Shown: positions 23,685 to 42,682 of the stretch, piece after piece | Layout: each line of letters starts with the position of its first letter | How positions within the stretch are numbered: position 1 is the stretch's first letter | Source of the DNA: Eubacteriales bacterium | GTDB taxonomy: Bacteria > Bacillota > Clostridia > Oscillospirales > CAG-272 | Direction: 5' to 3' | Assembly: GCA_045632205.1 (NCBI GenBank) | Contig: JAZQWH010000002.1 | Location: 1 to 42,682, forward strand | Length of the DNA: 42,682 bases | The notes under the pieces: generated by a model | Told to the model about the DNA's origin: nothing | Database searches by the model: none | The model's input: only the letters and a program-made list of their open reading frames with translations | Position numbers and translations under genes: made by a program

Positions 23685-24572
23685 TCAAAAAAATGATTCG
23701 ATCGCACAGGTCACGCCGCACGCGCGCATTCGCTCTACCGCTGAGAGAAGCTCCTTCTTTTTGGGGAGGGGAACGTCGGGGATGGGATAGGCTTTTCCGA
23801 GTGCGTGATATTTTCGCTCGGCGTAGCTATGGTAGGCAAGGATGCGCACGCAGGTCACGTTTTTCAGCTCCCTGACAACGCAGGCGATGCGCTCGACCTC
23901 ACCGTCGTTCATCGTCGGCACGTAGGGGTAGCGGATCTCAAAGGGGAGCCCCTTCGTGTCGAGGTAACGCAGATTTTGCAAAATCTGCGAATTCGTTCCC
24001 CCCGTGCAGGCAATATGCACCCCCTCGTCGATCGCCTTGAGATCGACGAGAAAGCAATCCGCATAGGGCAGGATCCTGTCGAGCGAGGCACGCGGAACCG
24101 CGAGGGAGGTGTCGATGGCGAGATGAATGCCTCGCTCCTTGAGGTGCCTTGCAAGTGCGACGCATAGATCGACCTGCATCAGCGGCTCACCGCCCGAAAA
24201 GGTCACGCCGCCTCCGCTCTCCTTCATAAAAAGCTCGTCGCGCAGAACCTCCCGAACGATCTCTGCGGCATCTCTCTCGTCACCAACCACCTCAAAAGCA
24301 CCGTGCGGACAAGCGTCCACGCACCGCCCGCAGAGGTCGCAATTCTCGCGCAGCAGGATGTGCCCACCGTCGCGCAAAAGATTTGCCCCGCAGACCGTGG
24401 CGCATTTTCCGCAGGCGGTGCAGCGGTCGGGATCGTAGAAAAGCTCCTTGGAAAAGGAAAAGGATTCGGGATTGTGGCACCATCTGCAGCGCAGAGGACA
24501 TCCCTTGAAGAAGACGGTGGTGCGGATGCCGTCTCCGTCGTGAATTTCAAATGGCTTAATTGCAAAAATCAT
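23685..24572 (-). CDS. Glycyl-radical enzyme activating enzyme (radical SAM) 1
   Basis: HDGDGIRTTVFFKGCPLRCRWCHNPES; ferredoxin insert with two CxxCxxCxxxC motifs; GGVTFSGGEP; TGATG overlap with the GRE stop. Confidence 0.92.
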   Translation of the reverse strand: MIFAIKPFEIHDGDGIRTTVFFKGCPLRCRWCHNPESFSFSKELFYDPDRCTACGKCATVCGANLLRDGGHILLRENCDLCGRCVDACPHGAFEVVGDERDAAEIVREVLRDELFMKESGGGVTFSGGEPLMQVDLCVALARHLKERGIHLAIDTSLAVPRASLDRILPYADCFLVDLKAIDEGVHIACTGGTNSQILQNLRYLDTKGLPFEIRYPYVPTMNDGEVERIACVVRELKNVTCVRILAYHSYAERKYHALGKAYPIPDVPLPKKKELLSAVERMRACGVTCAIESFF

Positions 24573-26925: not shown

Positions 26926-27699
26926 ATGAAAAAGGATTTGTGCGTCGAGGAGATCGTCAACGTTTATCGGCAGGACACGACGAAATGGAAGAGAGATGCC
27001 TCTCGTGAGCGAAACCGAGAGGGGCTTGTGCTGTTTACGGAGGGGGAGATCGAGTATACTTTCCCGAGCGAGACGGTGCTGGCGCGCCGCGGTTCTTTGA
27101 TGCTTTTTCCGTCAAATCTGCCCTATTGCGGTGTTGCGCGAACCGAACGGGTTGCATATTTCGTTCTCGATTTCAAGTCGGTTGGAGAGGACGGGACGCT
27201 TGCGCTCGGTGCGCCCTGCATTGCCGTTCCGCAGAATTTTGAGGAGCTGTGCCGCGCATTTGACGAGGTGGAGCGTGCGTGGGAGCGGCAGAGCGCGGAG
27301 TCGAATTTGCTTGCCAAGGCATTCTTGTACAAAACGCTCGCGCAGATGGTTGGGGGCGGCAAGCATCCGACGGGCGGAGACGATCGCGGAATTCTGCCCT
27401 ATCTGTTCGATCACTACACCGATCCCGCGCTTTCCGTTTCGTCGCTGTGCCGTGAATTTTTTATTTCCGAGTCACAGCTGAGACGCAATATCCTGCGTGC
27501 AACGGGACTCACACCGAACGAATATATCACCTCCCTGCGCTTAACGCGCGCGAAGCGGGAGCTGATCTGCACGCAAAAAAGAATTTTGGACATCGCCTCG
27601 GAGTGCGGATTTTCCTCCGCCTACTATTTCTCCCGATGCTTTCACCGTCACACAGGCGTCTCTCCCGAGCAATACCGCCAAAGCAACCGATCGGTTTAA
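26926..27699 (+). CDS. AraC family transcriptional regulator
   Basis: C-terminal HTH (IASECGFSSAYYFSRCF...GVSP); divergent from GRE 1. Confidence 0.9.
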   Translation: MKKDLCVEEIVNVYRQDTTKWKRDASRERNREGLVLFTEGEIEYTFPSETVLARRGSLMLFPSNLPYCGVARTERVAYFVLDFKSVGEDGTLALGAPCIAVPQNFEELCRAFDEVERAWERQSAESNLLAKAFLYKTLAQMVGGGKHPTGGDDRGILPYLFDHYTDPALSVSSLCREFFISESQLRRNILRATGLTPNEYITSLRLTRAKRELICTQKRILDIASECGFSSAYYFSRCFHRHTGVSPEQYRQSNRSV

Positions 27700-27766
27700 A
27701 AAAGAACCCGGATCCGCAAGCGAGGTGTCCATCAGGGCACGCCGCATCGGATACGGGCTCTTTTTC
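27698..27766. terminator. Bidirectional terminator-like hairpin
   Basis: AAAGAACCCG.ATCCG...CGGAT.CGGGCTCTTT between convergent genes. Confidence 0.55.
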
Positions 27767-28577
27767 AATTAAAAATTGCATTCAGCGCGTCGAGCGTCTC
27801 CTTGCTCGGCACGTCAAAGGTTGTGGCATCCAAGCCGAGCGCGCCGTATTTGTGTGCGCCCATTGCGTGGTAGGGCAGAAGCTCTGTGCGCTGAGGCTTG
27901 CCGCAGGAATCGAGAAATTCCTTGATGCGGCGCATCTCCTCCTCGCTGTCATTGACCGAGGGAATGAGCGGGATGCGCACCCAAACGGACGCGTTTTTTG
28001 CGAGCAGCAAGCGAAGGTTTTCAAGGATCCGTCCGTTTTCCACGCCCGTGTATTGCTTGTGGAGCCTGCTGTCATAGCATTTTACGTCGTAGAGGAAGAG
28101 ATCGGTATAGGGCAGGATGTGCTCGAAGCGCTCAAACGGCACGTTTCCCGCGGTGTCCACGGCGGTGTGGATGCCGTTTTTTTTGCATTGGGCAAGAAGC
28201 TCCTCCAGAAAATCGATCTGAAGCATACATTCCCCGCCCGAAAAGGTCACGCCGCCCCCCGAGCTTTGGTAGAAGCGCGCATCCTTTTTGATCTCCCGCC
28301 ACACCTCGTCTGCCGTGTATTCCTTGCCGCAGATCTCTCTCGCACCGTTCGGACAGAAAAAATCCGCGTCATACGGGCTGATGATCTTACATTTTCCGCA
28401 ATTTGCGCACTTGCTTTGATAGAACGTCATTTGCGGCTTTGGCGATTGACTTTCGGGATTGTGGCACCACGCGCAGTGCAAATTACAGCCCTTGAAAAAG
28501 ACGGTCGTGCGGATGCCGGGGCCGTCCACAAAGGAATTCCTTTGGATATCGAAAAGCGTTGCGGTTGGATTACTCAT
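27765..28577 (-). CDS. Glycyl-radical enzyme activating enzyme 2
   Basis: DGPGIRTTVFFKGCNLHCAWCHNPES; shortened ferredoxin insert (CANCGKC...CP); GGVTFSGGE. Confidence 0.92.
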   Translation of the reverse strand: MSNPTATLFDIQRNSFVDGPGIRTTVFFKGCNLHCAWCHNPESQSPKPQMTFYQSKCANCGKCKIISPYDADFFCPNGAREICGKEYTADEVWREIKKDARFYQSSGGGVTFSGGECMLQIDFLEELLAQCKKNGIHTAVDTAGNVPFERFEHILPYTDLFLYDVKCYDSRLHKQYTGVENGRILENLRLLLAKNASVWVRIPLIPSVNDSEEEMRRIKEFLDSCGKPQRTELLPYHAMGAHKYGALGLDATTFDVPSKETLDALNAIFN

Positions 28578-30816
28578 AAAAATTCCTCGAGATCACCTCG
28601 TCCTGCCATTCGCGGGAGAGGCTGGTGAATTTTGCGGAAAAGCCCGTGACACGCACGATCAGATGCGGATAGCGCTCGGGGTGCTTCTGCGCGTCGAGTA
28701 GCTCCTCCCTTGAGGTGCAGTTGAGCTGGAGCGATTGGATCGCCGTATGCGAGACCGCGCGCAAAAATCCGACGCAACGGTCAAGCGGAATTTTCGGGGG
28801 CAGGATGATGTTGACCACCGAATTTGCCGCCATCGTGGAGGGATCAAGCGACGCGAGACTGTTGATGACGTCGTTGACGCAGGGGATCCTTTTGAGGCGC
28901 GAGGGGGTAAGCCCCTGCGAAAAATACTCGCCCGCCTTCCGTCCGTCGGGGGTGGCAAGCGTGACCTCTCCCCAGAAGCGGATCTCGGTGTAGGTCAAAT
29001 GCCCCAGATGCACCCTGCCGCCGTAGGTTCCCGTTTTCTTTCGAAAGATGGCGAAAAGATCGTTGTTGAATCGGCTTGCGAGCGCGCAGGAGTCGTCGTT
29101 GCCGTCTCCCCATCCGTGACAGCGCGTTGCCTCAAGTCGCATCTCCTCATAGCCCTCCCAATTGGCGCGGACGGCGGCGAGATAGGCGGGGAGGGTGTAT
29201 TTTTCTTGGTCAAAGACAAGCGTCTTGATCGCCAGGAGCGAGTCCACGATGTTGGGCAGACCGAAGAGAAGCTGATAATCGTCGCGGTAGCGTGCGCCGC
29301 CTGCGGTAAAGTCGGCGTGATTTTCGAGGCAATCGGCGAGCGTGGAGGAGAAGATGGGGAAGACGGAGACCTTGTGGAAGATCTGCCCTCCGCGACGCGT
29401 TTTGTCAAGCTTGGCGTCAAGCACCAGCTCGCAGTTGTGCAGGACCTTACGGTAAAGCTCCTCGAAATCCTCGTCGCCCTCAAGCATTTCAAAGTCGATT
29501 TCCACCTCCTCTGCCTTCTCCTTCAGCCCGTGGACGGAAAATTCAAAGGGCTTGAGCAGATTGAGATAGCTTCCGTGATCGGATTTTTCGGTGGTGGTAA
29601 CAACGTCCCAGCAGCCCGCGATCATATAGTCGCGCGCCTCCTCGATCGGTCTGCCTGCGCGGACAAGGGCGGGGATCATTGCATCATCGTTCTGGAGCAG
29701 GACGGTGGTGGTTCCGTTTGCGATGGCGCGGGAGACCGCCTCGAGATATTCGGTGGGGGAATCCTTCCCAAAGCGACATTTGATCTTGGGGAAGATGACG
29801 CCATTCTCCTGCGTCGCGCGCAAAAAGAGCAGCGTCAGCTCGTTGCAGATCGGGTGTCCCTCCCCGTCACAGCCACCAAGCGTATAGGTGTTTTCCAGCT
29901 CGTGATCGGCGTATCCCGCCATGATCATATTGTGGTCGTAGTGGCAATCCCAGAGGAGGAGGAACTGCGAGATCAGCTCGTATGCCTCGTCGGGCGTGAG
30001 CCTTTGACTCTCAAGATCGGCACGGTAGAAGGAGATCAGATCGAGGTCGAGGCGCCCGAAGGTGTTGGGGCCCGCGCCCTCCAGAGAGCCCATTACGGTG
30101 CGCAAAAAGGCAAGCGCCGCGAGTGCCTCGTAGAAGGTTTTCGGCGCCTCCCACGGCACGCGGCGCGCGGTGTCGGCGATCATAGCAAGATTCTTGCGGC
30201 ATACGGGATCGCGCTCGTCCCGAAGCATCTGTTCCGCCTTGACGGCAAATTTTTTCGCTACGCGGGAAAGCACCTCCATTCCGTGGCAGACCGCCTCGAG
30301 GAATTCCGTCTCGTCCGCGTTTTTCGCTTTTTTCAGCTCGGCTTGCGCCTTTTCAAAGATCCCTCGCGCGCCCATCTCCAGAAACGGACGGCAATTGAAG
30401 TTGAAATGCTGGCAGTTGTCGTTATACGGGCCGCAGATGAGATAGAGCTTTTCCTTTTTTTGCACCTGCGTGATGCGATACAGCTCGGGATCCTGGTCGA
30501 TAAAGAGCTGCTGATTGCGCAGATAGACCCAGGCGTTTGCCTGATAAAATCCAAGCCCCTTTGCCTTAAACGCACCGTCGGAGAGGGAGGTCAATACCCC
30601 CGTTTCAAAGAAAAACGGATTGTGGCGAAAGACTATGGGCGTAAACTCCTCGCAGATGACGTCGTATTGAAGCAGCTTTTGCGCGGTCACGGTCATACCG
30701 TCAGTCGCTCGTTTGTCCATTATGGCAAAGCATTTTTGCGCAAAGGCTTTGGAGCGCTCTGCGTCTCCTTGCAAATAAAAGTCATACAATTCGCGTTTTA
30801 AAGGCTCTGTGTTCAT
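28570..30816 (-). CDS. Glycyl radical enzyme (PFL-like family) 2, substrate unknown
   Basis: ~748 aa; FGRLD, Cys loop GCWD, ATPDGR, glycyl motif VRVTGF. Confidence 0.9.
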   Translation of the reverse strand: MNTEPLKRELYDFYLQGDAERSKAFAQKCFAIMDKRATDGMTVTAQKLLQYDVICEEFTPIVFRHNPFFFETGVLTSLSDGAFKAKGLGFYQANAWVYLRNQQLFIDQDPELYRITQVQKKEKLYLICGPYNDNCQHFNFNCRPFLEMGARGIFEKAQAELKKAKNADETEFLEAVCHGMEVLSRVAKKFAVKAEQMLRDERDPVCRKNLAMIADTARRVPWEAPKTFYEALAALAFLRTVMGSLEGAGPNTFGRLDLDLISFYRADLESQRLTPDEAYELISQFLLLWDCHYDHNMIMAGYADHELENTYTLGGCDGEGHPICNELTLLFLRATQENGVIFPKIKCRFGKDSPTEYLEAVSRAIANGTTTVLLQNDDAMIPALVRAGRPIEEARDYMIAGCWDVVTTTEKSDHGSYLNLLKPFEFSVHGLKEKAEEVEIDFEMLEGDEDFEELYRKVLHNCELVLDAKLDKTRRGGQIFHKVSVFPIFSSTLADCLENHADFTAGGARYRDDYQLLFGLPNIVDSLLAIKTLVFDQEKYTLPAYLAAVRANWEGYEEMRLEATRCHGWGDGNDDSCALASRFNNDLFAIFRKKTGTYGGRVHLGHLTYTEIRFWGEVTLATPDGRKAGEYFSQGLTPSRLKRIPCVNDVINSLASLDPSTMAANSVVNIILPPKIPLDRCVGFLRAVSHTAIQSLQLNCTSREELLDAQKHPERYPHLIVRVTGFSAKFTSLSREWQDEVISRNFYE

Positions 30817-30920
30817 CAAAAATTCCCCTTTCTCGCTTGGATCTGATAACTGTATTCTACTAAAAAAACAAAAAAATGCAATGTAGAATAAAGAAGATTT
30901 GTAAAATACGGAAATTTATA

Positions 30921-30966: not shown

Positions 30967-31707
30967 ATGGATATGAAATTTGAAAAGCTTCGCGTCAGGG
31001 AGATCCGAGGGGTGCTTCGCTACCGCCCGAGTCAGATGCGCTGGAACGCCTCAAACCGCCGAGATCACATCATCGGCATCCAGCTCAGCGGAAGTGCCCT
31101 GCACGAAATGGAGGGGCAAAAATTCGTCCTGCGCGAGAACGTTGCCTATTTTCTCAATCGGAAGGACGATTACCGCGTCGAGGTAGAGGAGGCGGGGGAG
31201 GCGCTCTCGATCCATTTCACCACCTATGAGGAGATCGAAACCGATAGCTTCTGCTTTCCCGCGCAGAATGCGGGGGAGCTCGTGACGATCCTGAAAAAGG
31301 CGGAGGGGGCGCGTGCCGCAGGGAACGAATTGCGCGTGCTGGCACTGCTCTACGAGCTTTGCGACGCGTATGAAAAAATACGGGCGAGGGCGTACGCGCC
31401 GCAGGATGGGCGTATGCTTGCCGCAAAAAATTATATCGACCGTCATTTTGCAGAGGACGGCTGCCTTGCCGAGGCGATCGGTGCGAGCGGACTTTGCGAT
31501 CGCAGATTCCGCGATCTCTTCCGTGCGTCCTTTCAGACCACCCCGGGGCGCTACCTCACGCTCAAGCGGATCGAATACGCAAGACAATTGCTCTCCGTCG
31601 GCGGACTTTCGGTCACCGAGGTCGCGGAGCGCTGCGGCTTCTCGGATCTCTATTATTTCAGTAAGGTGTTCAAGCAGATTTGCGGAATGCCGCCCAGCGA
31701 GTGGTAA
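30967..31707 (+). CDS. AraC family transcriptional regulator
   Basis: C-terminal HTH (SVTEVAERCGFSDLYYFSKVFK); divergent from GRE 2. Confidence 0.9.
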   Translation: MDMKFEKLRVREIRGVLRYRPSQMRWNASNRRDHIIGIQLSGSALHEMEGQKFVLRENVAYFLNRKDDYRVEVEEAGEALSIHFTTYEEIETDSFCFPAQNAGELVTILKKAEGARAAGNELRVLALLYELCDAYEKIRARAYAPQDGRMLAAKNYIDRHFAEDGCLAEAIGASGLCDRRFRDLFRASFQTTPGRYLTLKRIEYARQLLSVGGLSVTEVAERCGFSDLYYFSKVFKQICGMPPSEW

Positions 31708-31762
31708 AAAACGATCCCGAACCGTTTCGCTTATGATAATCGGTATGATCCAAGGAATATCG

Positions 31763-31869
31763 GTGTGTTATCATAGGGACAACACCGTTACACACAAAAT
31801 AATATTTTTCGGACAAAAACGGTTGTCCCTATATAGCGCGCTCGTTTGGCACGTTATAATAGGGACAAC
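31763..31869. repeat. Cluster of three TAGGGACAAC motifs (att/res-like site)
   Basis: GTTATCATAGGGACAAC (31767-83), inverted GTTGTCCCTAT (31822-32) and GTTATAATAGGGACAAC (31853-69); the last two form a 48-bp imperfect palindrome; the same motif ends the arm next to the spoIVB fragments. Confidence 0.7.
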
Positions 31870-31887
31870 TTTTTTATTCGATTTTTT

Positions 31888-32008
31888 TTACGACGCCTTC
31901 GCCATAGGGAGATTGACGGCATTGAGCATATTCTCAATAAAGATCCCGTACCCCGTGGTGGGATCGTTGATCAGCACGTGGGTGACCGCGCCGATGAGCT
32001 TGCCGTCC
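31888..32008 (-). pseudogene. spoIVB: spoIVB 3' fragment, copy 1 (5'-eroded)
   Basis: Translates [39 protein letters not shown]; the SGSPIIQ part and the arm are missing. Confidence 0.85.
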
Positions 32009-32028
32009 CGATTGCAGGGCGCGTGTGT

Positions 32029-33630
32029 TCAAATAGGGGCAACGTCCTTTATCGCCGCAACGTATTTTTTCGCAAGCTCCTTTAAGGATCGATAATCCCT
32101 TGCATTGATCAGCTGTTTGTTATATAGATTCGATCCAACGCCAACTCCGTAAAAGCCCATATCAAGGAAGGCTTTTGCGTTTTCTGCCGTTACGCCGCCA
32201 ACCGCGAGGAGCTTTGCGTCGGAGAGGGGCGCGCAGATCGCCTTGAGGTATCCGCCCGTGACACGGTCTGCAGGGAAGAGCTTGATATAATCGGCGCCGT
32301 GCTTGAGCGCTGCCGCAATCTCGGTTGCCGTGTATGCCGCAGGTATGGAGACCATTCCGAGCCTTCTTGTCAGCGCGATGATCTCGGCGTCGCAGTTGGG
32401 AGAGATGATAAAGGATGCGCCTGCCTCAAACGCGATCAGGACCTCCTCGGGTGACGTGACCGTACCCGCTCCGACGAGCATCCGTCCGTCAAAATTCTGA
32501 TTGAGACACGCGATCATCTCACCGATCTGATCGGGAGCAATTTTGCCGGAGCGGTCGAAGGTGACCTCAAGCAGACGGATCCCGCCCGCATAGAGTGCCT
32601 CTGCCGCAGGGATCAGGGTTTCTCGATCGGGGGCACGCAGGATCGAAATGAGTCGTTCGCTATGGATCGCCCCGAGAATGCGCTCGCGCGCGAGATGGGC
32701 ACGGGAGACGGCATAAATTTTTTGCAAGGCGCAAACGACCGCCGCATCGGTGCATTCCTGCGGCAAAAGGGTTGCGGAATGCTCTTCCAGAAGGATCTCG
32801 TAGATCCGTCCGAGCCGTTGACTTCCGCCGATGAAAATGGGAGACGTGCCTGCGTAGCGGCAAATGAGCGGGCAGTCCTCACGCAGGATCGCACCGCAGA
32901 GGAAGGAGGAGAGAGCGTCGGTGGGGCGTCCGTTTTTCTCCATCACGCGTACGTGGAAGAGCGCGGCATTCAAGCCGTGTTCCGCAGCATACGCCGCACC
33001 GCGAAGGACACCGGTCTCGGAGATCGTAAAGTCGTGTGAGACCGCGCCCGACAAAATGCTCTTCGTGACCGCCATATCGAGCAGCTCTCCGCTGAGCGTG
33101 GTGGCAAAATCCAGGATCTCGCCGTGCTCGCCGATGCGGATGATCTTGTTGTGCGTGCCGGGGAGCAGGATCGTGCAGGCCTGTCCCGCGGGTAATGCGG
33201 AAAGGATGCCGATCAGCTCGGTCTCCTCACCGCGCATCAGATCGCAGAGTCTGCCGTTTGCCGTTTTTTTCAGTCCGGGAACGAATCGGATGGGGATCGC
33301 GGTCAGCTCGGGGATCCTTCTCTCACAAACACTCATTGCCACGCTTGAGAGATCCGAGGGGAGGGAGACGTGAGGGATCTCGCACAGTGCCATCTCGCTT
33401 CCCGACATTCCCGAGGTGAGGATGCATTCCACCGCATCCTCGCTGCAGCCGTTTGATTGCAGGAGGTCGAGGATGACGGCGCGCAGACGTGCGAGCAAGG
33501 TCGCCCTGCCCTCCGTTTTGCCAAGCCCTGCGCCGAGCGGAGCTTTTCTTCGGTCAAGTATTGTATTCCCCTTGCACAGCCAAAGCCTTGTGTTGGTCGT
33601 GCCCATATCCATTGCAAGATACACTGTCAT
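32029..33630 (-). CDS. Fused 2-keto-3-deoxygalactonate kinase (DgoK-like) / KDPG-KDPGal aldolase (Eda/DgoA-like)
   Basis: N-half DMGTTNTR, DLMRGEETE, LPGTHNK; C-half GGIRLLEVT, VGAGTV, FIISP, IKLFPA, AVGGV; ATG 33630 with GGAGG and ATGA overlap with the upstream gene. Confidence 0.85.
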   Translation of the reverse strand: MTVYLAMDMGTTNTRLWLCKGNTILDRRKAPLGAGLGKTEGRATLLARLRAVILDLLQSNGCSEDAVECILTSGMSGSEMALCEIPHVSLPSDLSSVAMSVCERRIPELTAIPIRFVPGLKKTANGRLCDLMRGEETELIGILSALPAGQACTILLPGTHNKIIRIGEHGEILDFATTLSGELLDMAVTKSILSGAVSHDFTISETGVLRGAAYAAEHGLNAALFHVRVMEKNGRPTDALSSFLCGAILREDCPLICRYAGTSPIFIGGSQRLGRIYEILLEEHSATLLPQECTDAAVVCALQKIYAVSRAHLARERILGAIHSERLISILRAPDRETLIPAAEALYAGGIRLLEVTFDRSGKIAPDQIGEMIACLNQNFDGRMLVGAGTVTSPEEVLIAFEAGASFIISPNCDAEIIALTRRLGMVSIPAAYTATEIAAALKHGADYIKLFPADRVTGGYLKAICAPLSDAKLLAVGGVTAENAKAFLDMGFYGVGVGSNLYNKQLINARDYRSLKELAKKYVAAIKDVAPI

Positions 33631-35291
33631 ACCTCCTTGTGCAGATTTCTGTATTTTTGAGGAGAGATCCGTTCCGTGCGCGTAAACGTTTCGGTGAAGT
33701 ACGAGGCGCTTCCAAAGCCCACCTCGCACGCGATCTGTGAGATCCTGAGGTCGGTGTTCTTCAGGAGGAGCTTTGCGCGCGTCATACGCAGCTCGTTGCG
33801 GTATTCGGTTACCGTTGTGCCCGTTTCGGATTTGAAGACGTGAGAGAGATAATAGACGCTGAGATGCAGATCCCGTGCGATTTGCGAGATCGGAATATCC
33901 TCGGAAAGATGCTCCTCCACGTATTCGCAAATGCGCGTGTAAATAGGGGCGCTTTTGGCAGGCTCGGGCGCGGAGGTGAGCCGCTCAATGATCGCTTGCA
34001 GGATCGTGCGATCTCGCCGCTCGCTTGCCTCAAATTGCGCGATCAGAGCATCGAGCTTTTTGAAATCCTGCGTGTAGGGCGCAACGCAATTGGGCGGAAA
34101 ACGCTCGAAAAGTGCCTCGATGGGGTCGGTGTCGGGATCGTCGAGAAGCTCCTGTGCAAGCGTCTCACAGCCTCCCGTGACCGTTCGGTAGGGGTTTGGG
34201 ATGCCCTCTGCAAGACGGGAAAGCTTGCAGACCACGCGGCAAAGATAGCTTTCGGGGTCGCTCAGCGCACCGCAAAGGATCTCATCCTCGGTGATCCGTG
34301 CGACCAGGATCTCGCGCGCGGAGGCATATGCCTCCTCTAAGCCGGAGAGAAAGCAGCCTCGCTCGCGGTCGTAGACGACGTGGATGACACCGCCCTCGCC
34401 AACCGTTACGTCGGGATAGGAGATGCTTTTGCGACTGTCAAGCAGCAGGGAATAGGGGAAGGTCATACCGTCATCCTCCGAAAGATACGCCGTCAGATGA
34501 CTTCTCGTGTCGGAGGTGGCGTGGTTGATCAGAAGCACGCGTCCCGAGGGGAGCTTGCCGACGTAGAAGCGGGAGGAGGGACCGCACAGAGAAAGCTTTC
34601 GTCCACAGCTCCATTGATGTCCCCGATCGTAGGAATAGCTCTCGCCGATTCCGCGATTGAGACGGACGAGCATACGAAGCACGCCGTTGTTCATTTCATA
34701 GACCATATGCTCGTCATAGGAGCGGTTGGGGACGTCCGCACCGCCGAGACGGTGAAAGCTTTGCCCGTTGTCGGAGGTCTTGTAAACGTAGGATGCCGCC
34801 ACGTCCTCCTCCGTCAGCCCGCGTCTGCGGAGATTGGCGAGGAGATCGGGCTTCCAGATCGCAATGGGGAAGAGCCATTCGCCGGTGGAGAGCACGGTGG
34901 GCTTGTTCATCATCACGCCTCTTCCGATATAAAATTCACGTGACCATACCGGCTCGTCGGCGTCGGGATCCTCGCAGAGGGCGCCCCAAACCTCCTCACC
35001 GGGCATCACGTTCCATATAAACCAAAGTCGCTTTAGGGGATCGATCCAAAGCACGGGGTCGAAGCAACGGAAGGCACCCGACTTGCAGGCGACCGCGATA
35101 GGCTCACTGTATCGAAGCTCATCGTCGGAGCGGATGAGGGCGGCAAAGTTCCCAAAGGTCTCTTTGGTGTCGCCGGAATAGAAGGAGACGAATATGCGTC
35201 CGCGCGGCGTGCGGGCAATTCCGGGAATCCCCTGCCATACACGTCGATCGGAGGCGAAGTCTTTTAATTTGGAAGCATCGGTGATCAGCAT
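33627..35291 (-). CDS. Sialidase-like (BNR) domain fused to an AraC DNA-binding domain
   Basis: RVWQGIP, Asp-boxes (TSDNGQSF, SYDRGHQW, SEDDGMTF), SYPD, YDRER; C-terminal AraC HTH (IACEVGFGSASYFTETF). Confidence 0.8.
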   Translation of the reverse strand: MLITDASKLKDFASDRRVWQGIPGIARTPRGRIFVSFYSGDTKETFGNFAALIRSDDELRYSEPIAVACKSGAFRCFDPVLWIDPLKRLWFIWNVMPGEEVWGALCEDPDADEPVWSREFYIGRGVMMNKPTVLSTGEWLFPIAIWKPDLLANLRRRGLTEEDVAASYVYKTSDNGQSFHRLGGADVPNRSYDEHMVYEMNNGVLRMLVRLNRGIGESYSYDRGHQWSCGRKLSLCGPSSRFYVGKLPSGRVLLINHATSDTRSHLTAYLSEDDGMTFPYSLLLDSRKSISYPDVTVGEGGVIHVVYDRERGCFLSGLEEAYASAREILVARITEDEILCGALSDPESYLCRVVCKLSRLAEGIPNPYRTVTGGCETLAQELLDDPDTDPIEALFERFPPNCVAPYTQDFKKLDALIAQFEASERRDRTILQAIIERLTSAPEPAKSAPIYTRICEYVEEHLSEDIPISQIARDLHLSVYYLSHVFKSETGTTVTEYRNELRMTRAKLLLKNTDLRISQIACEVGFGSASYFTETFTRTERISPQKYRNLHKEV

Positions 35292-35376
35292 CGCAAAACC
35301 TCACAAAAAACGGATTTTCACCGTTATTATAGCACGGGTGACTCGGATTTTCTATAACAGGATTGCTATTTATGAA

Positions 35377-35414
35377 GGAGGCGACCCCACCAAACGGTGA
35401 GATCGCCTCTTTTT
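35377..35414. terminator. Terminator following spoIVB fragment 2
   Basis: GAGGCGA...CACC-AAAC-GGTG...TCGCCTC-TTTTT. Confidence 0.65.
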
Positions 35415-35558
35415 ATGCAGTTTTTTTCTCTGTCTGCGCCGGCATCGTGTTTACCATATTCTCAATAAAGATCCCATACTCCGTAGTCGGATCGTTGATC
35501 AGCACGTGGGTGACCGCACCGACGAGCTTGCCGTCCTGAATGATTGGGCTGCCGCTCA
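35413..35558 (-). pseudogene. spoIVB: spoIVB 3' fragment, copy 2
   Basis: Translates [47 protein letters not shown]; starts at the TG preceding the catalytic Ser codon of GMSGSP. Confidence 0.9.
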
Positions 35559-35583
35559 GTAGTGTGGTCAAGTAGGGACAACA
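35557..35583 (-). mobile_element. Putative att junction (core TG + conserved non-spoIVB arm)
   Basis: CAGTAGTGTGGTCAAGTAGGGACAACA; shared with 38629-38655; GC content drops abruptly to the right. Confidence 0.7.
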
Positions 35584-35676
35584 AAATTTGTACTGTTTTT
35601 TATTAAACGTTTCGCTTTTTGTATTTCTTCGTCCGTGGGAATGTGGTGAGGCATGGAATTAGTCATTCCAAGCGCC

Positions 35677-36510
35677 TCACGTTTTGATACGGCATATTTG
35701 TGACACATCAATACCCGTATTTTTTTGATTTCTGTACGCGGACGGAGAATAGCCCGTTTTCTCTTTGAAAATTCTTGAAAAATAAGATGGACTTGAAAAT
35801 CCGCATAGGGTACTCACCTGAGTGACAGATATGTCCTCCTTTTTTAATAGCTCTTTTGCCATAGTTATTCTTGTTTGTACGATATAGTCCATAACGGTAA
35901 TACCTATCTTTCCTTTGAATAACCTGCAGAGATAATACTTGTTTATATAACATATCTCGCTTATTTTATCGATTGAAATATCTTCAGAAATATGTTGATT
36001 GATAAAGTTTATAACGGTTTGGAGAGAATTGGGTTCGGGTCTTGCTTCTGTAATTGCATTTTTTGTAAGAATGATCATAAGCCGAATGGCCGCAGATGAT
36101 ATTTCGGCTTGGATATACTTTGAATCTTCCGATAAACTATTTAACGTGTCGAAAATATCTCGGACCGCGTTTTTATCGTTTTCTCCAAGAATAGAAAAGA
36201 TGATCGCATCTTCGTTAAAAAGCTCTGTAAAGTTTGGATAATTGCCAAGTACGTGTGTTAAGCTATCCAATATATTTGATTCTAAGAACAGTTTACTTCT
36301 TGTGTATTCCATAGGTTTAGTTGGAAAGGTATAATGGTATTTGTTTTTACCTATATAGCAAAGCACTCCTGATTGCAGAGGATAGCTTTTGTCACGGAAA
36401 ACGATACTTCCTTTTCCGGATTCTATAAAAAGAAAGGTGTTTTTTTTCGGTGTATGCCATATTTTATAAAAATTGTCTTTTCCTTTTTGGTTAACGGTAA
36501 TATCGTACAT
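35677..36510 (-). CDS. AraC family transcriptional regulator (AT-rich cassette B)
   Basis: Cupin + HTH (VSTLCGFSSPSYFSRIFK...SP). Confidence 0.9.
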   Translation of the reverse strand: MYDITVNQKGKDNFYKIWHTPKKNTFLFIESGKGSIVFRDKSYPLQSGVLCYIGKNKYHYTFPTKPMEYTRSKLFLESNILDSLTHVLGNYPNFTELFNEDAIIFSILGENDKNAVRDIFDTLNSLSEDSKYIQAEISSAAIRLMIILTKNAITEARPEPNSLQTVINFINQHISEDISIDKISEICYINKYYLCRLFKGKIGITVMDYIVQTRITMAKELLKKEDISVTQVSTLCGFSSPSYFSRIFKEKTGYSPSAYRNQKNTGIDVSQICRIKT

Positions 36511-36697
36511 TTTATTCTCCTATGAATATAGCTTGGCTTATATTATAGCATACTTTTTATCATAAGTCAATGAGAGTAAAAAATAGGTCAAAAAAATGAT
36601 TGTATTGAATAAAAAATTGAATTATAATAAATCATCAATTGATTTAAATTTTAAAAATTAATTGAAATATCGGATAATCGAAAGGATACATAATCAA

Positions 36698-37486
36698 ATG
36701 TTTGATTTAAAGGGTAGAGTAGCTATAGTTACCGGAGCTGTGGCGGGGCTTGGCAGAGATATGGCAGAGGTATTTGCGGAATACGGATGTGATATTATTA
36801 TTACAAGCCGCCAGATAGAAAAGGCAAATAAGGCTGCCGCTGAAATTGAAGAAAAATATTCGGTAAAGGCAATGGGGCTCTCCCTTGACGTAACGTCTTG
36901 CGAAAGCGTTGAAGCATTTGCGAAAAGTGCAATGGAGTGGCAAGGACATATCGATATCCTTGTAAATAATTCCGGCGGCGGAAGTGGTGCCTCCGAGGGA
37001 CATATTTTTGACCGTCCGTATAAGGATATTTTCAATATGATTAACGTAAATCTTACGGGAACTATTTTTGTGTGCAAGGCTGTTGGAGCATATATGAAGT
37101 CACAGGGCTTCGGTAAGATAATCAATATAGGCTCTATTGCGGGAATGGTCGGTCGTGATCGCAGAATGTACTATAAAGCAAATAAGATGGAGCAACCGGT
37201 TGATTATGCGGCGGCAAAGGGCGGTGTAATATCATTGACACGTGACTTGGCGGCGGTTATGGCACCATACGGTGTAAACGTAAATTGCATATCTCCCGGC
37301 GGATTTGATAAAGGAGAGCTTCCGGCTGAATTTGTAAGGCTTTACAGTGACCGTACTGCACTTGGACATATGGGGCGTATCGGAAGTGATATAAAGGGCG
37401 CGGCACTCTTTCTTGCAAGCAGTGCATCCGATTACGTTACGGGCATAAATCTTGCGGTTGACGGAGGATTTTCGTCATGGCAGTAA
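36698..37486 (+). CDS. SDR family oxidoreductase (gluconate 5-dehydrogenase/KduD-like)
   Basis: TGAVAGLG, ILVNNSG, YAAAK catalytic motif, VDGG; ATG 36698. Confidence 0.9.
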   Translation: MFDLKGRVAIVTGAVAGLGRDMAEVFAEYGCDIIITSRQIEKANKAAAEIEEKYSVKAMGLSLDVTSCESVEAFAKSAMEWQGHIDILVNNSGGGSGASEGHIFDRPYKDIFNMINVNLTGTIFVCKAVGAYMKSQGFGKIINIGSIAGMVGRDRRMYYKANKMEQPVDYAAAKGGVISLTRDLAAVMAPYGVNVNCISPGGFDKGELPAEFVRLYSDRTALGHMGRIGSDIKGAALFLASSASDYVTGINLAVDGGFSSWQ

Positions 37487-38439
37487 AAGACCGTAAGATA
37501 TTTATTGTTGGATGCGGTTCTATCGGAAAAAGACATGCGGAATGTCTTTTTGAGTTGGGTATTAAAAGATTTGTATTTTTTGACCCCGATGCTGAAAAAA
37601 TGGCAGAGCTTGCAAAAATATATGACGGAGAAACAGTAGCTTCCTTTGATGAAGGGCTTGATACCGATGCGGATTGTGTCTATATACTTTCCCCGACCCG
37701 TTGTCACGTAGAGCAGGCATTTGCGGCTGTAATGCATGGAAAGCACGTTTTCCTTGAAAAGCCTTTGTCGGATTCTCTTGACGGAATTGACGAGCTTTCC
37801 TCTCTTGCTCAGGAAAAAGGTATAACCGTTGAAGTGGGATTCTGCTTCAGATTTCACGAAGGTATTTGTGAACTTAAACGCCGTCTTGATAACAAAGAGA
37901 TCGGGAAGCTTGTCTCTATTCGCGCTATGATGGGAGAGCATTTTCCCGATGTGCGGCCCGATTATTTATCAACGTATTACGTTAAGTATTCGGGAGCATT
38001 TGAGCTTATACACGATCTCGACCTTGCAATATATCTTGCGGGAGAAGAGCCTGTATCATGTAACGGATTTTTCGGTTCGTACGGCGAGCTTGGCTTTGAG
38101 TCTCCTGATACGGTTGAAATATCGGTTAAATTTCCGAGTTGTCTTGCAAATGTACATCTTGACTTTTTCCAGTCTCCGCGTACCCGTACTATGACACTGC
38201 TTGGTACTAACGGACAGATGGTGCTTACCTTCTCTACATGGGATGAATATGAGTTAAAAATATATACGCGAGAAAAAGGGAAGTGGGAAACCGTTTGCGC
38301 AAATACACGGCGTAACGATATGTTTAAGGCTGAGTCGCTTAACTTCTTTGGTGCAATAGACGGAACTCAAAAAAATCTTTGCCCTATTTCCGAAGCAAAA
38401 AAATCGCTTGTCGTATGTAAAACGGTTAATCCGAGTTAA
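37477..38439 (+). CDS. Gfo/Idh/MocA family oxidoreductase
   Basis: VGCGSIGKRH, HVFLEKP, ELIHDLD. Confidence 0.9.
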   Translation: MAVKDRKIFIVGCGSIGKRHAECLFELGIKRFVFFDPDAEKMAELAKIYDGETVASFDEGLDTDADCVYILSPTRCHVEQAFAAVMHGKHVFLEKPLSDSLDGIDELSSLAQEKGITVEVGFCFRFHEGICELKRRLDNKEIGKLVSIRAMMGEHFPDVRPDYLSTYYVKYSGAFELIHDLDLAIYLAGEEPVSCNGFFGSYGELGFESPDTVEISVKFPSCLANVHLDFFQSPRTRTMTLLGTNGQMVLTFSTWDEYELKIYTREKGKWETVCANTRRNDMFKAESLNFFGAIDGTQKNLCPISEAKKSLVVCKTVNPS

Positions 38440-38443
38440 TAAA

Positions 38444-38483
38444 AAAGGCAATATCAAACCGCTATGGAATGATATTGCCTTTT
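38444..38483. terminator. Bidirectional terminator attached to spoIVB fragment 3
   Basis: AAAGGCAATATCA...TGATATTGCCTTTT; identical copy at 42621-42660. Confidence 0.8.
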
Positions 38484-38487
38484 ATTT

Positions 38488-38630
38488 TTACGACGCCTTC
38501 GCCATGGGCATATTTGCCGCATTTAGCATATTTTCAATGAAAATCCCATACCCCGTGGTGGGGTCGTTGATAAGCACGTGCGTGACCGCACCGACGAGCT
38601 TGCCGTCTTGGATGATTGGGCTGCCGCTCA
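38488..38630 (-). pseudogene. spoIVB: spoIVB 3' fragment, copy 3
   Basis: Translates [46 protein letters not shown]. Confidence 0.9.
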
Positions 38631-38655
38631 GTAGTGTGGTCAAGAAAGGACAACA
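38629..38655 (-). mobile_element. Putative att junction (core TG + conserved arm)
   Basis: CAGTAGTGTGGTCAAGAAAGGACAACA, 2 mismatches versus 35557-35583. Confidence 0.7.
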
Positions 38656-38669
38656 ATTTTTTGAAAATT

Positions 38670-39434
38670 TTATATCTTGTTTTTTTTTCTGTACTTTTGA
38701 GGAGAGATACTGTAATGTTGCTTGAACATTTTTGAAAACAGAAGCGCATCGTCATAGCCTACAGATTTTGCGATCAGTGAAATATCTTCATCTGTATCAA
38801 TGAGCAAAAAAGCTGCTCGCTCCATTCTGATTTTTTGCAGGTATTGCTTGGGTGAAATGCACACCTGTTGAACAAATATTGTACGGATATAATTTTTGTT
38901 CAAGTAAAATTTTTTCGCTATTTCCTCTATGGTAAGCTTTTTATAGTAATTTTCTTTAATGAATTTTGCAATGCATTCAACGTGCTGCCTGGGCATGCTT
39001 TTGGTTAAGGCTATCGGATATTCTTTCTTGAATAAAAGAAAAATGGCATTTGCAATTATTTTTTTTGCGGTTGGATCGCCATCGTATGACAACTTTTGAT
39101 AAAGGGATAAAATCTGAAAAAGACTTTCCGTATCGGAGAACGGTACTACTGATAAGCCTAAATTGAAATTATGCTCTTGAAACGCCTTTTTTATTTCATC
39201 ACCCATTAATCTTACGTAAATGTAACTCCAAGGATCGTTTTTTGAGGGATAATAATTCATTCTGTTATTCTCAAAAGATATGAAAACGGTACCCGTTGTG
39301 ACTTTTTGACCGTTAATATATCCCTCTCCCGATAACACGAAGTGAAGTACCGAATATGGAATAATACAATCAATTTTAGTTTTATCAGGGGCACACTGCT
39401 CAAAAGCCATATCAGTGGTGTAAATGTTATACAT
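38670..39434 (-). CDS. AraC family transcriptional regulator (AT-rich cassette C)
   Basis: [11 protein letters not shown]...DPW.Y.Y, HTH ([18 protein letters not shown]...SP). Confidence 0.9.
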
Positions 39435-39550
39435 AAGCTGACCTCCGCACCATTAATAGTGTTATTATAACATATAAAACAGTTGTTTTGCAATAGAAAA
39501 AATTGATTTTTCCATTATAATGGACAAAAATACATCAGGAGAGATAACTT

Positions 39551-42500
39551 ATGGGAACATTTGAAGATCAAAGATTGTATAATCCTGAATTTATACAAGA
39601 AAACAGACTTGCTCCGAGAGCTACTGTAATTCCATCACTTCATAAAGGAGTTTTTTATAAAAACAGGTTGGAGTCAGAGCTGATACTTGACCTTAACGGA
39701 GACTACAGATTTTGCTGGTGTGAAAAAGACAATATTAAGGATTTTTACAGAAGCGACTATGATGACAGGGAATGGGATATTCTGCCCGTGCCTTCAATGT
39801 GGCAATATCACGGATATTCCGAACCGCTGTACCCAAACGTAAGATACCCAATTCCTTTAGTTCCACCTTACGTGGGAAATTATAATCCCGTTGGATACTA
39901 CAGAAAAGTCTTCAAGACAAGCAAAGGCGGGCGAAAAATTCTTTATTTTGGCGGCGTTGATTGCGCATTTTTCGTTTATCTTAACGGCGAATACGTAGGA
40001 TTTTCAAAGGGGAGCCGAATGCCTGCGGAATTTGACGTTACAGAGATTATTTGCGAGGGTGAAAATCTCCTTGCCGTCAAGGTATTCACCTACTCGGACG
40101 GAACCTATCTTGAAAATCAGGATATGCTTCTCGCCAGCGGAATTTTCAGAGATGTTATGCTCTATACCTTGAATGGTACCTATATATGGGATTACCGCAT
40201 AAAAGCTAAAGGCGACTCTATATATGCAGATATAAATTTGGGCGGAAATATTCTCTCTGATGCAAGCGTAAGAGTTTCGGTTGACGGTATGACGCAAACG
40301 GTCAACGCAAAAAAGAACGTATCCTTTGAATTTGCCATAGAAACTCCCATTTGTTGGAATGCAGAGCAGCCTCACACCTATGAGGTTGTAATAGAATTGC
40401 TTCAAAACGATGCAGTTTTAGAAATTCATACGAAGAAGGTAGGATTTGCTGAATTTGAAATTGTTAAAAACAAGATACTTCTTAACGGTAGTCAGATAAC
40501 CCTTAAGGGTATAAACCGCCACGAGCACGACCCAAGGAACGGTCGCGCCATCACGGTAGAGCGTATTGAACGTGAGTTAAAGCTTATCAAGGACCACAAT
40601 ATGAACGCCATACGTTGCGCCCATTATCCCAACAATCCCGCCTTTTATGAAATGTGTACCGAACTTGGAATATACGTTATGAATGAAGCCGACATTGAAA
40701 CTCACGGAGCGCACACGTGCGGTGACATGGGATATTTCTCAAAGCAGCCCCGGTGGTATCAGGCGTATATTGACAGAGTCAGCCGTATGTATGAAAGAGA
40801 CAAAAACGAAAGCTGTATATCAATATGGACTCTCGGAAATGAAAACGGCAACGGAGAAAATCTTTACAGATGCTTTGAATATCTGAAAGCAAAGGTTGGA
40901 AAGACCCCGGTTATGCATACGGGTGATAACGGACATGAACCGAAGATAAGCGAATTCCGCGCATGCGGATACCAAACCATGGAAACCCTTATGAGTTTCC
41001 CCACCGATGGAAATCCCGTAATGATGCTGGAATACGGACACGCCATGGGCAACAGTCCGGGACTTATGAAGGACACCTGGGATTACGTATACCGTAACAG
41101 ACATATCTGCGGTGGATACGTCTGGGAGTTCAAGAACCACGGATTTTACAGTGAGGACGCCGACGGAAACGTCTTTTACAAGTACGGTGGAGATTTTTCG
41201 GGTGAAGTCTACCATTGGTCTAATTTCTCTATGGACGGTTACTGTACCTCTGACGGTACTCCAAAGGCTACACTCAAAGAATGTAAAAACGTCCTTGCGC
41301 CTACCTATGTTTCCTACAAGGATGGAAAGATAATGCTTATGAATACTAACGATTTCCGTTCTCTTGATTATCTTACGCTTAAGTGGGAGCTTGCGGAGGA
41401 TTACCTTCCAATAAAATCCGGTGAAATGAAGCTTCCGCCTATCGCACCTTATAATAGTGCCGAGCTGAATATTGATACGAGCGTCAGCGAGCCCGTTGCG
41501 GGCGCTGAATATTTTGCCAATCTGCGGTTCTATGACGAGTTCGGCCTTGAAGTTGCCTATAAGCAGGTATCTCTTGGAATTAAGAAGGAAAAGGAAGAGT
41601 ATGTATCAGTAAAGGCGAGTGTTCAGATCGAGGAAACGAATAGTGAAATAACACTGAAAAATGATGCCTTTACGCTAAAGATCGCCAATGGACTTATCTC
41701 ATACTTACAAAAGAATAACAAGGTTATACTTAGTAAACCCGTAAAGCTTAATCTGTACCGCGCCCCCATAGATAATGATGGTATCGTTAAATTCAGCGAA
41801 CGATGGATAAAAGAGTGGCAAAAAGCTCTGTACCGCCATTTTGAGCTGATGCCCTTGAATATAAGCACAGAAAGGCAGAACGACGGTTCGGTTTCGGTGA
41901 GCGTAGTAGGTAAGTGGACTCCGCCTTCTGCCTACGAAGGCTTTGATATTGATATAGTCTATACGGTATACGGAAACGGAGATATATTCGTAAATATTCA
42001 CGGAAAGCCTTACGGAAAATTTGCGGAAACGGTTCCAAGAATAGGTCTCGTGTTTACTCTTGATAAGACTATGTCCCGGGCGCTCTGGTACGGACGTGGA
42101 GAGGATGAATGTTACGTTGACAGCTGTGAGCATTGTAATTTCGGACTGTATGAAAAGAATATTGAAGATATGAATTTCCTTTACGATATCCCTCAGGAAA
42201 ACGGAACGAGAGTAGACACTCGCTTCGTCAAGGTTGGAAATAATAAAATTTCGCTGTCCGTTATAGGATCAAATAGCTTTGCATTCTCTTATCACGATTT
42301 TGACTTGGAGAATCTTATAAGCGCAAGACACCGCAATGAGTTGAATAAGTCGGACGAGAATTATCTGTATATTGATTATGCCATGCGCGGTCTCGGAAGT
42401 AAGTCCTGCGGTCCCGACCCCGAGGAGTGCTATGAGCTTCGCGCTCACGAATTCAGATTTGCCTTTCTTTTATCAACGTGTTCAAAGGAAGGCGAGCTCT

Positions 42501-42610
42501 TGACACAGTATCGTAAAAGATTCAGTGCGAAAACTGAAAAGCTTGGCGAAACACATATTTTTGCTCCCCAAAAGGATAGTATAAATATTGTGGAATGTAA
42601 TAAAGATTGA
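39551..42610 (+). CDS. lacZ: GH2 beta-galactosidase (LacZ/EbgA-like)
   Basis: 1019 aa; YLENQDM...SGIFRDV, KGINRHEH, RCAHYP, WTLGNE (acid/base), EYGHAMGNS (nucleophile), PQENG.R. Confidence 0.88.
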   Translation: MGTFEDQRLYNPEFIQENRLAPRATVIPSLHKGVFYKNRLESELILDLNGDYRFCWCEKDNIKDFYRSDYDDREWDILPVPSMWQYHGYSEPLYPNVRYPIPLVPPYVGNYNPVGYYRKVFKTSKGGRKILYFGGVDCAFFVYLNGEYVGFSKGSRMPAEFDVTEIICEGENLLAVKVFTYSDGTYLENQDMLLASGIFRDVMLYTLNGTYIWDYRIKAKGDSIYADINLGGNILSDASVRVSVDGMTQTVNAKKNVSFEFAIETPICWNAEQPHTYEVVIELLQNDAVLEIHTKKVGFAEFEIVKNKILLNGSQITLKGINRHEHDPRNGRAITVERIERELKLIKDHNMNAIRCAHYPNNPAFYEMCTELGIYVMNEADIETHGAHTCGDMGYFSKQPRWYQAYIDRVSRMYERDKNESCISIWTLGNENGNGENLYRCFEYLKAKVGKTPVMHTGDNGHEPKISEFRACGYQTMETLMSFPTDGNPVMMLEYGHAMGNSPGLMKDTWDYVYRNRHICGGYVWEFKNHGFYSEDADGNVFYKYGGDFSGEVYHWSNFSMDGYCTSDGTPKATLKECKNVLAPTYVSYKDGKIMLMNTNDFRSLDYLTLKWELAEDYLPIKSGEMKLPPIAPYNSAELNIDTSVSEPVAGAEYFANLRFYDEFGLEVAYKQVSLGIKKEKEEYVSVKASVQIEETNSEITLKNDAFTLKIANGLISYLQKNNKVILSKPVKLNLYRAPIDNDGIVKFSERWIKEWQKALYRHFELMPLNISTERQNDGSVSVSVVGKWTPPSAYEGFDIDIVYTVYGNGDIFVNIHGKPYGKFAETVPRIGLVFTLDKTMSRALWYGRGEDECYVDSCEHCNFGLYEKNIEDMNFLYDIPQENGTRVDTRFVKVGNNKISLSVIGSNSFAFSYHDFDLENLISARHRNELNKSDENYLYIDYAMRGLGSKSCGPDPEECYELRAHEFRFAFLLSTCSKEGELLTQYRKRFSAKTEKLGETHIFAPQKDSINIVECNKD

Positions 42611-42620
42611 CTTAAATATC

Positions 42621-42682
42621 AAAGGCAATATCAAACCGCTATGGAATGATATTGCCTTTTATTTTTACGACGCCTTCGCCAT
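42621..42682 (-). repeat. Terminator + spoIVB 3' end, copy 4 (cut by window edge)
   Basis: 62 bp identical to 38444-38505 (encodes ...MAKAS*). Confidence 0.9.

Follow-up and report, generated by a model that had tools for sequence, protein, structure and literature searches.

Tandem recombinase-free catabolic cassettes at a serine-recombinase target within the sporulation gene spoIVB

On a contig of Eubacteriales bacterium (Bacillota; Clostridia; Oscillospirales; CAG-272; GenBank assembly GCA_045632205.1, contig JAZQWH010000002.1), the 3′ end of spoIVB, the gene for the sporulation peptidase SpoIVB, is present in several tandem copies with catabolic genes between them. The stretch analysed here, hereafter the window, is this whole contig (C2; 42,682 nucleotides) of a 2.32-Mb metagenome-assembled genome (G000) that consists of 229 contigs and is 88.6% complete. 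We find that the region is a real and recurrent stack of catabolic cassettes at a newly recognised target of large serine recombinases (LSRs) in spoIVB. The junctions between the copies are products of site-specific recombination at one spoIVB codon by elements of a type that carries three LSR genes (tri-LSR elements), and the units of the window are bounded by attR-type sites and contain no recombinase. Our reading, which we hold to be probable, is that the region is a composite island, assembled sequentially from recombinase-less, att-bounded cassettes at the tri-LSR att site in spoIVB (M350/S351). As such it is closer to the tandem arrays of the staphylococcal cassette chromosome (SCC) or of cis-mobilisable elements (CIMEs) than to an integron, to which an original prediction, made from the letters of the window, had likened it.

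Results

Four copies of the spoIVB 3′ end lie on the minus strand, in the places where the original prediction had put them. A repeat search returned a 154-nt family at 31922-32075, 35450-35603 and 38522-38675 (spacing 3528 and 3072 nt), the outer copies of which are 66% and 86% identical to the middle one, and a 68-nt repeat at 38438-38505 and 42615-42682 with 97% identity and an offset of 4177 nt; minus-strand translation of the copies gives the C-terminal 40–50 residues of the SpoIVB peptidase. The fourth copy is the real gene, since the last 141 bases of C2 match the first 141 of contig C66 exactly and the minus strand of C66 encodes an intact SpoIVB open reading frame (ORF) of 396 aa, which scores 334.4 bits against TIGR02860, the SpoIVB equivalog model (cut-off 305.25). 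A full-length minus-strand spoIVB had been anticipated to the right of the window, together with a further core TG at 42806-42807, and the TG of codon 350 of the intact gene falls on exactly these joined coordinates. Identity between the spoIVB tails is 86–94%, i.e., the copies differ from each other at 6–14% of positions, which argues that they did not arise by duplication during assembly. Tail 3, the displaced copy nearest to the gene, is 94% identical in DNA to the resident tail.

The junctions are precise. Copies 2 and 3 start at the identical base and share a 22-nt arm that is followed by TA, CTG and the Ser codon of SGSP, so that the alignment upheld the claim of a common start and a common non-spoIVB arm; in copy 1 the arm is present and the junction is degenerate and 11 nt shorter. 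The breakpoint of the tails lies at codons 350/351 (M-S of GMSGSP), with a TG common to all junctions, and the target codon named in the original prediction is accordingly a true site-specific site. The Ser of GMSGSP is presumably the catalytic residue of SpoIVB, as taken from the literature on Bacillus subtilis. A degenerate arm pattern has 4 matches in the window where 0.04 would be expected (none of 100 shuffles gave as many), and all four occurrences of the 10-mer core of the arm in the 2.32-Mb assembly fall in the array locus. The linker between arm and core is variable within one cassette type: at 38631-38632, in the linker of the most gene-proximal unit (cassette C), contigs of all four public sequencing runs that cover it read TC GTG, as compared with TA CTG in the window (gene strand).

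The same junction occurs next to recombinase genes elsewhere. Nine IMG/VR contigs encode a SpoIVB tail, and in seven of them an arm is joined to a tail that begins at residue 350. Shortly upstream of the arm, each of the seven has three consecutive genes for proteins of about 550, 568 and 530–590 aa, whose Resolvase, Recombinase and zinc-ribbon (Zn_ribbon_recom) domains identify them as LSRs, and the three genes are orthologous across the contigs (42–63% identity). A search of species-representative genomes with an alignment of the arm-proximal LSR recovered 80 loci, with titles that include Oscillospiraceae, Lachnospiraceae, Ruminococcaceae, Roseburia, Blautia, Schaedlerella arabinosiphila DSM 106076 and Eubacterium sp. 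14-2. At 68 of the 80 loci the LSR gene is followed on the same strand by a tail from residue 350, with a median gap of 86 nt (≤300 nt in 58 of the 68); three loci have an inverted 5′ part of spoIVB that ends at residue 350, and eight have no SpoIVB match. The recombinase class suspected at the outset was therefore the right one, as seen from these linked tri-LSR elements in other genomes. Two or more tails are present at 3 of the 68 loci, i.e., arrays also occur downstream of resident elements. On one contig (L083), an LSR gene begins about 140 nt after a tail and the contig then ends; an IMG/VR search with this partial gene returned itself alone.

Integration of such elements interrupts the gene, and spoIVB is split exactly at codon 350/351 in five genomes (G483, G484, G485, G486 and G011). 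In the cultured isolate S. arabinosiphila DSM 106076 (G483), the 5′ part and the tail are 115 kb apart on one strand, with the insert at C1 1959845-2075868 (loci L142 and L191) and the tri-LSR operon at its tail-proximal end. The two parts are 72 kb apart on one strand in a member of the Oscillospiraceae (G484) and on separate contigs in G485 and G486, and in G011, which belongs to the genus of the window, spoIVB runs to the ATG of codon 350 and is followed by 3 nt, an inverted arm-like box and the contig end. Junctions of the attL type and of like form were read in G483, G484, G487 and G011. At the other end of the viral contigs, three IMG/VR records were searched for a second att site and had none. 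A phage-like IMG/VR contig (L089, 2-88 and 1986-5344) that abuts a spoIVB tail broken after about residue 379 carries two LSR genes that are non-orthologous to the triplet, and looks like the mark of a second integration site within spoIVB.

Combining attL and attR gives an attP for the elements in which two arm-like halves flank TG as a quasi-palindrome, and by this deduction the arm is the recombinase-proximal half of attP, so that each junction of arm and tail is of the attR type. Three types of half-site, namely the gene stretch that leads up to codon 351, the start of the tail and the arm, are found in all four combinations. Gene stretch and tail make up the intact gene, and arm and tail the repeated junction. 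An arm next to an inverted arm forms a palindrome directly after the stop codon of many tails, with various centres that are only sometimes TG. An arm next to an inverted gene stretch is left as relics of 17–21 nt, one in the window (Table 1) and others at a minimum of 10 further loci, and the same junction type is found with the whole spoIVB 5′ part at L173, L176 and L190. The palindrome and relic that follow tail 1 in the window have counterparts in several relatives: they stand behind the intact gene of G002, G022, G067 and G087 and, in G067, behind displaced tails too. In G018 the palindrome is immediately behind the intact gene and the relic lies some 1.6 kb beyond it.

Arrays of tails that are free of recombinase genes recur well beyond the window. 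Of the 78 species of the genus, 19 (the window genome included) had tail-only matches in a protein search, and a DNA search gave extra copies of arm and tail in many relatives. Among 51 displaced tails taken from loci of 32 genomes (the genus and other families of the order), 46 begin at residues 350–352 of the 396-aa SpoIVB, and a recognisable arm immediately precedes 42. In an order-wide sample, where two candidates were scored per genome, at least 23 of the matches listed, in at least 20 genomes and at least eight families, reach into the arm. As predicted for related genomes, the junction is the same and the cargo and its order differ. Cargo varies by species and mostly combines a regulator with sugar or catabolic enzymes; it includes a GH5 enzyme with an EamA transporter, a FAD oxidoreductase with a PocR-AraC regulator, a melibiase-type hydrolase with a binding protein, an iron alcohol dehydrogenase with a DeoR regulator, a MerR protein and an AAA_14/DUF4143 ATPase. 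No recombinase was present among the 20 cargo proteins scanned, and no recombinase gene stood beside an array in any of the 32 genomes.

Some cassettes occur in more than one species. Cassette B of the window genome and its counterpart in G002 are 90.4% identical over 3008 nt (92–100% in windows across the AraC gene); the SpoIVB proteins of the two genomes are only 74% identical and the contexts of their arrays differ. The GH5-EamA cassette of G002 and G005 is identical at 69 of the 70 bases before the core, and the tails differ immediately after the core. More generally, the DNA just upstream of the arm is unrelated between cassettes and the arm itself is nearly invariant. For the tails, the identity table was partly out of register where tail ends differ, and well-aligned rows alone were used: the nearest displaced tail is the one closest to the resident tail in G000, G022, G067 and G087 (0.89–0.92 identity), and a displaced tail of G081 shares more identity with the tail of G022 (0.89) than with the resident tail of its own genome (0.81). 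Some displaced tails are internally degraded. Those at L050 (G083, 3467-3633) and L056 (G069, 5547-5714), from two species, carry a similar foreign insertion in mid-tail. Within cassette B, the AraC gene (window 35640-36720 compared with L034 of G002) is 97–100% identical in most windows and the remainder 72–97%, mostly 80–93%, a pattern that points to a recent recombination tract.

Between the tails of the window lie three self-contained catabolic units, A to C, whose content agrees with the original prediction by Pfam assignment (Table 1). None of their eight main ORFs has a recombinase domain in Pfam, as had been claimed. The seven PF00589 matches of the genome are all on contigs other than that of the array. 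Cassette C is covered at roughly 96–99% identity by contigs of four public runs from four studies, and cover of units A and B in these runs is patchy and low (short contigs, with many joints from tail repeats of other organisms).

Table 1. Positions of the spoIVB tails, arms, hairpins, relic sites and cargo genes in the window
Feature	Position	Strand	Basis or remark
Third arm-like box, adjoining a 17-nt inverted copy of the sequence before spoIVB codon 351 (inverted attL-type relic)	31742-31784	.	
Palindrome of two arm-like boxes after tail 1, in the form of the elements' attP; centre not TG	31822-31870	.	attP form deduced from attL and attR
Tail 1, without SGSP start; junction 11 nt shorter; most decayed of the three	31888-32007	-	
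Arm of cassette A, degenerate, overlapping the stop codon of the DgoK-Eda ORF	32023-32044	-	
Cassette A: DgoK-KDPG aldolase fusion ORF, domains from residue 108	32029-33930	-	Pfam DGOK, Aldolase
Cassette A: BNR/sialidase-like domain fused to AraC	33627-35291	-	Pfam BNR_2, HTH_18
Tail 2, open frame, C-terminal end divergent	35413-35556	-	
Arm of cassette B (35562-35583), then TA, CTG	35557-35583	-	
Cassette B: AraC	35677-36510	-	Pfam
Cassette B: SDR	36662-37486	+	Pfam
Cassette B: Gfo/Idh/MocA oxidoreductase	37477-38439	+	Pfam
Hairpin after tail 3	38435-38491	.	Inverted repeat, 22-nt arms, 86% complementary
Tail 3 (S351 to stop), open frame	38488-38628	-	98% aa identity to resident tail
Arm of cassette C (22-nt P half-site 38634-38655), then TA, CTG; with tail 3 an attR-type junction	38629-38655	-	Alignment; like arms after tri-LSR genes elsewhere
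Cassette C: AraC-family regulator	38670-39434	-	Pfam HTH_18, HTH_AraC, AraC_binding
Cassette C: GH2 beta-galactosidase, 1019 aa	39551-42610	+	Pfam Glyco_hydro_2_C, Bgal_small_N, Glyco_hydro_2_N
Hairpin directly after the spoIVB stop; same module as after tail 3	42613-42667	.	Inverted repeat, 21-nt arms, 90% complementary; 68-nt repeat 97%
Intact spoIVB, last codons and stop, rest on C66	42665-42682	-	C2/C66 overlap, ORF, TIGR02860

Other functions were considered for the repeated parts. The hairpin that follows the gene was not called in a simple terminator scan because its loop exceeds 8 nt. After the intact spoIVB of L071 (G309, another family), the stem is kept by a paired change on both sides, which suggests that the hairpin is conserved as a structure and is probably a terminator. 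The post-tail palindrome looks like a bidirectional terminator, and such a function is possible and would be secondary; the arm is not explained solely as half of a native terminator, since the same halves are the att arms of LSR elements. As a promoter the arm was rejected on its unfit hexamer spacing, and a consensus promoter scan gave 21 sites against 18.1 expected. A hairpin of arm and tail resembling attC came down to a tentative pairing of 9 bp, the partners of which are lost in other species and show no covariation (judged by eye). A site of the tyrosine or Xer type was rejected as well, the PF00589 genes of the genome being unlinked to the array and no suitable dyad having been found in spoIVB. 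Rfam had no family at the gathering score within the window.

The remainder of the contig (1-31700), in which no tail or arm remnants were found, is a patchwork of AraC-type regulators (2058-2918, 13778-14524, 14595-15959 with a PocR domain, 20978-21829, 26926-27699 and 30967-31707) beside catabolic genes that include NAGLU-like and GH20-like hydrolases, a PfkB kinase, an SIS protein and an SSF symporter. This part also holds two paralogous gene pairs (23685-26773 and 27765-30819), each of which lies beside an AraC gene and encodes a pyruvate formate-lyase (PFL)-like glycyl-radical enzyme and an adjacent activase; the activase gene at 27765-28577 encodes a radical-SAM domain, and that at 23685-24575 was assigned solely by clustering with activase-like proteins. 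A PFL-like glycyl-radical enzyme is also distal to the last tail in G002 and G033, as in G000, and near the array in G034; in G018 this flank is absent, and the protein cluster of these PFL-like enzymes has members from G000, G002, G033 and G034 alone. At 3052-5115, a 687-aa protein has a C-terminal C-type lectin domain (Pfam Lectin_C, E 2.7e-14), which is unusual in gut Clostridium.

Discussion

The intact gene with extra tails calls for a cassette that carries its own tail, since a full element that integrates by attP × attB splits the gene and duplicates no tail. Each unit, composed of a tail, a hairpin, a regulator with catabolic genes and an arm, would have been added one by one at the site in the gene, and each addition would have pushed the older tails downstream. 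The route that we favour is accretion. A full element and a neighbouring cassette would excise together via the distal attR, the composite would integrate into the spoIVB of a new host, and the element would then leave alone via the proximal attR, so that the host retains an intact gene with a cassette-borne tail and its own old tail is displaced. Arrays behind resident elements at 3 of 68 loci fit this route, as do displaced tails that are nearer to the tail of another species than to the resident one (G081). The increase in decay between tail 3 and tail 1 matches the presumed order of arrival, and the expectation that the oldest cassettes are the most distal agrees with the most distal tail being the most decayed. 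B cassettes that are more alike than the SpoIVB proteins of their genomes and that stand in different arrays show that cassettes are shared between species.

Several observations weigh against sequential building by tri-LSR elements. The window assembly has no PF00239 match, and a tblastn search with the element LSRs was also without a match in this 88.6%-complete genome. In the 78 genomes of the genus, the closest relative of the arm-proximal LSR is only 36% identical, and LSRs of any kind, present in 53 of the 78, are never near an array; the serine recombinase that was expected nearby or elsewhere in the genome thus did not turn up. As no cognate recombinase was found in the window genome, the array is at present orphaned and would be movable only with an incoming element. 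Every LSR element with both ends placed (five genomes) splits spoIVB, and no complete autonomous element carrying its own tail was seen. At conserved residues, the use of identical codons is 0.53 in the tail and 0.56 in the preceding 60 codons (13 intact genes, 78 pairs), i.e., there is no excess in the tail that would reveal recent tail swapping among these species. The idea that an integrating unit restores spoIVB with its own tail is not supported by these observations. Furthermore, an LSR gene precedes the displaced tail in 0 of 51 cases, with no LSR remnant kept, the reading does not account for the arrival of cargo between a tail and an arm, and attR × attB is not known as a normal reaction of phage LSRs.

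The displaced tails could alternatively have formed by decay in place, each unit being what a full-size LSR element became on losing its recombinases and the bulk of its gene content. In favour of this, integration of LSR elements at this codon does occur, internal degradation is seen in some of the displaced tails and relic sites persist in the locus. However, the observed mode of integration splits the gene without duplicating a tail and cannot give an intact gene with extra tails, and because LSR genes abut the arm (median 86 nt) and yet none of the 51 tails keeps a remnant, the loss would have to have been precise every time. The units are, moreover, small and tidy modules of regulator and enzymes, and we regard decay in place as improbable.

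Homologous recombination alone, following a single ancient duplication, could also distribute cargo if the tails of about 140 nt served as portable homology, as in minimal mobile elements or the exchange of capsule loci. The mosaic similarity of cassette B (AraC mostly 97–100%, other cargo 72–97%), the closeness of the nearest displaced tail to the resident one in four genomes (G000, G022, G067 and G087) and the absence from the genus of a close relative of the element LSRs (best 36%) are in its favour, and homologous exchange probably contributes. As the sole process it is unlikely, because living LSR elements of two orders have the arm as their recombinase-proximal att half, each of the four att types is represented among the junctions, and a nearly invariant arm is preceded by DNA that is unrelated between cassettes. 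The similarity of the GH5-EamA cassettes of G002 and G005 drops right at the junction, and homologous exchange cannot put new cargo between a tail and an arm.

An integron-like platform, in which a dedicated resident recombinase captures circular promoterless cassettes for expression from a common promoter, has very little probability. The likeness lies in an ordered stack of tandem cassettes, each ending in a recombination site, beside one fixed site. The hallmarks of integrons, i.e., the platform tyrosine integrase (intI), folded single-stranded attC sites and promoterless cassettes served by one promoter, are all missing from the window; there is no recombinase gene beside the array in the 32 genomes, the cassettes have their own regulators and genes on both strands, and the repeated site is a serine-recombinase attR-type junction rather than a folded attC. 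An assembly or binning artefact, for which the 229 contigs and the contig end inside a repeat might speak, is extremely improbable given the 6–14% divergence of the copies, the reappearance of this layout in 19 of the 78 species of the genus as well as in further families, and the cover of cassette C by contigs of four public runs from four studies.

The closest parallels of the composite island are SCC elements. The excision and circularisation of tandem SCC-like cassettes by Ccr recombinases has been described (PMC11470126), as has, for the Enterococcus cassette chromosome (ECC), SCC-like insertion by LSRs of the ccrAB type (PMC6222049). Like the tri-LSR elements, SCC or SCCmec at rlmH (orfX) and ECC encode large serine recombinases in tandem. 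The array of the window also shares insertion at one site within the 3′ part of a conserved housekeeping gene, which itself stays whole, att repeats at the cassette borders, and tandem recombinase-less cassettes of accessory genes bounded by repeated att sites. The differences are considerable, however. The target is the catalytic-Ser codon of spoIVB in place of rlmH, and what is duplicated is a hairpin plus some 140 nt of coding sequence rather than a short repeat such as that of SCC. There are three LSR genes, the products of which score 50–104 bits against the CcrA, CcrB and CcrC models (cut-offs 700–900) and do not belong to the Ccr family. Furthermore, the LSR-bearing elements seen here split the gene, the cargo is catabolic, and the cassettes are candidates for mobilisation.

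CIMEs and the accretion and mobilisation of ICESt1 and ICESt3 in streptococci offer a second parallel. CIMEs are att-flanked, lack an integrase and share the 3′ end of a gene with an integrative element, to which they are joined in tandem, and they become movable when a related element supplies the recombinase; the enzymes are tyrosine integrases and the target is the fda gene. The units of the window are likewise att-bounded and without genes for recombination and transfer. They differ from the CIMEs of the ICESt1/ICESt3 family in cassette size and cargo and in that their att sites are those of serine-recombinase elements in spoIVB. Integrative and conjugative elements (ICEs) with three serine recombinases are recorded in Streptococcus suis (PMC5053989).

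The 72-kb and 115-kb spoIVB elements themselves resemble the intervening elements of sporulation genes, such as skin in sigK, SPbeta in spsM and gin in gerE, which are prophage-like or smaller, encode a serine recombinase at the edge and interrupt a gene at a single site (PMC5595907, PMC4191935 and PMC5025042). A skin-like split with an edge recombinase is found in G483, G484, G485, G486 and G011 and not in the window genome, where the gene is whole and no recombinase is present. In B. subtilis, spoIVB is expressed in the forespore, and excision there would hence not spare the germ line. The accessible text of a survey of skin-like inserts lists sigK, cotJC and spoIIID and not spoIVB (10.1101/2022.02.25.481979), and in the literature searched, supplementary tables aside, no paper ties spoIVB to an integration site, a serine recombinase or an intervening element.

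A broader proposal, which we put forward tentatively and think doubtful as it stands, is that tail and arm together may act as a portable recombination handle of about 200 nt that lets any gene block ride the tri-LSR elements of gut Clostridia, a serine-recombinase counterpart of the integron or SCC principle which would stock catabolic modules behind a sporulation gene in two orders, while the full elements switch SpoIVB off at its catalytic Ser and so couple cargo exchange and sporulation capacity at one codon.

Conclusions

If the reading of a composite island is correct, the catalytic-Ser codon of spoIVB would be a new and widespread LSR integration target in Oscillospiraceae, Lachnospiraceae, Ruminococcaceae and other families. 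The natural att sites and three-recombinase sets may interest those who build recombinase tools, and the cultured S. arabinosiphila DSM 106076 would provide a test case for the control of sporulation and the movement of cassettes. SCC-like stacking would then not be peculiar to staphylococci and enterococci, and it would shape the repertoire of sugar use among gut anaerobes.

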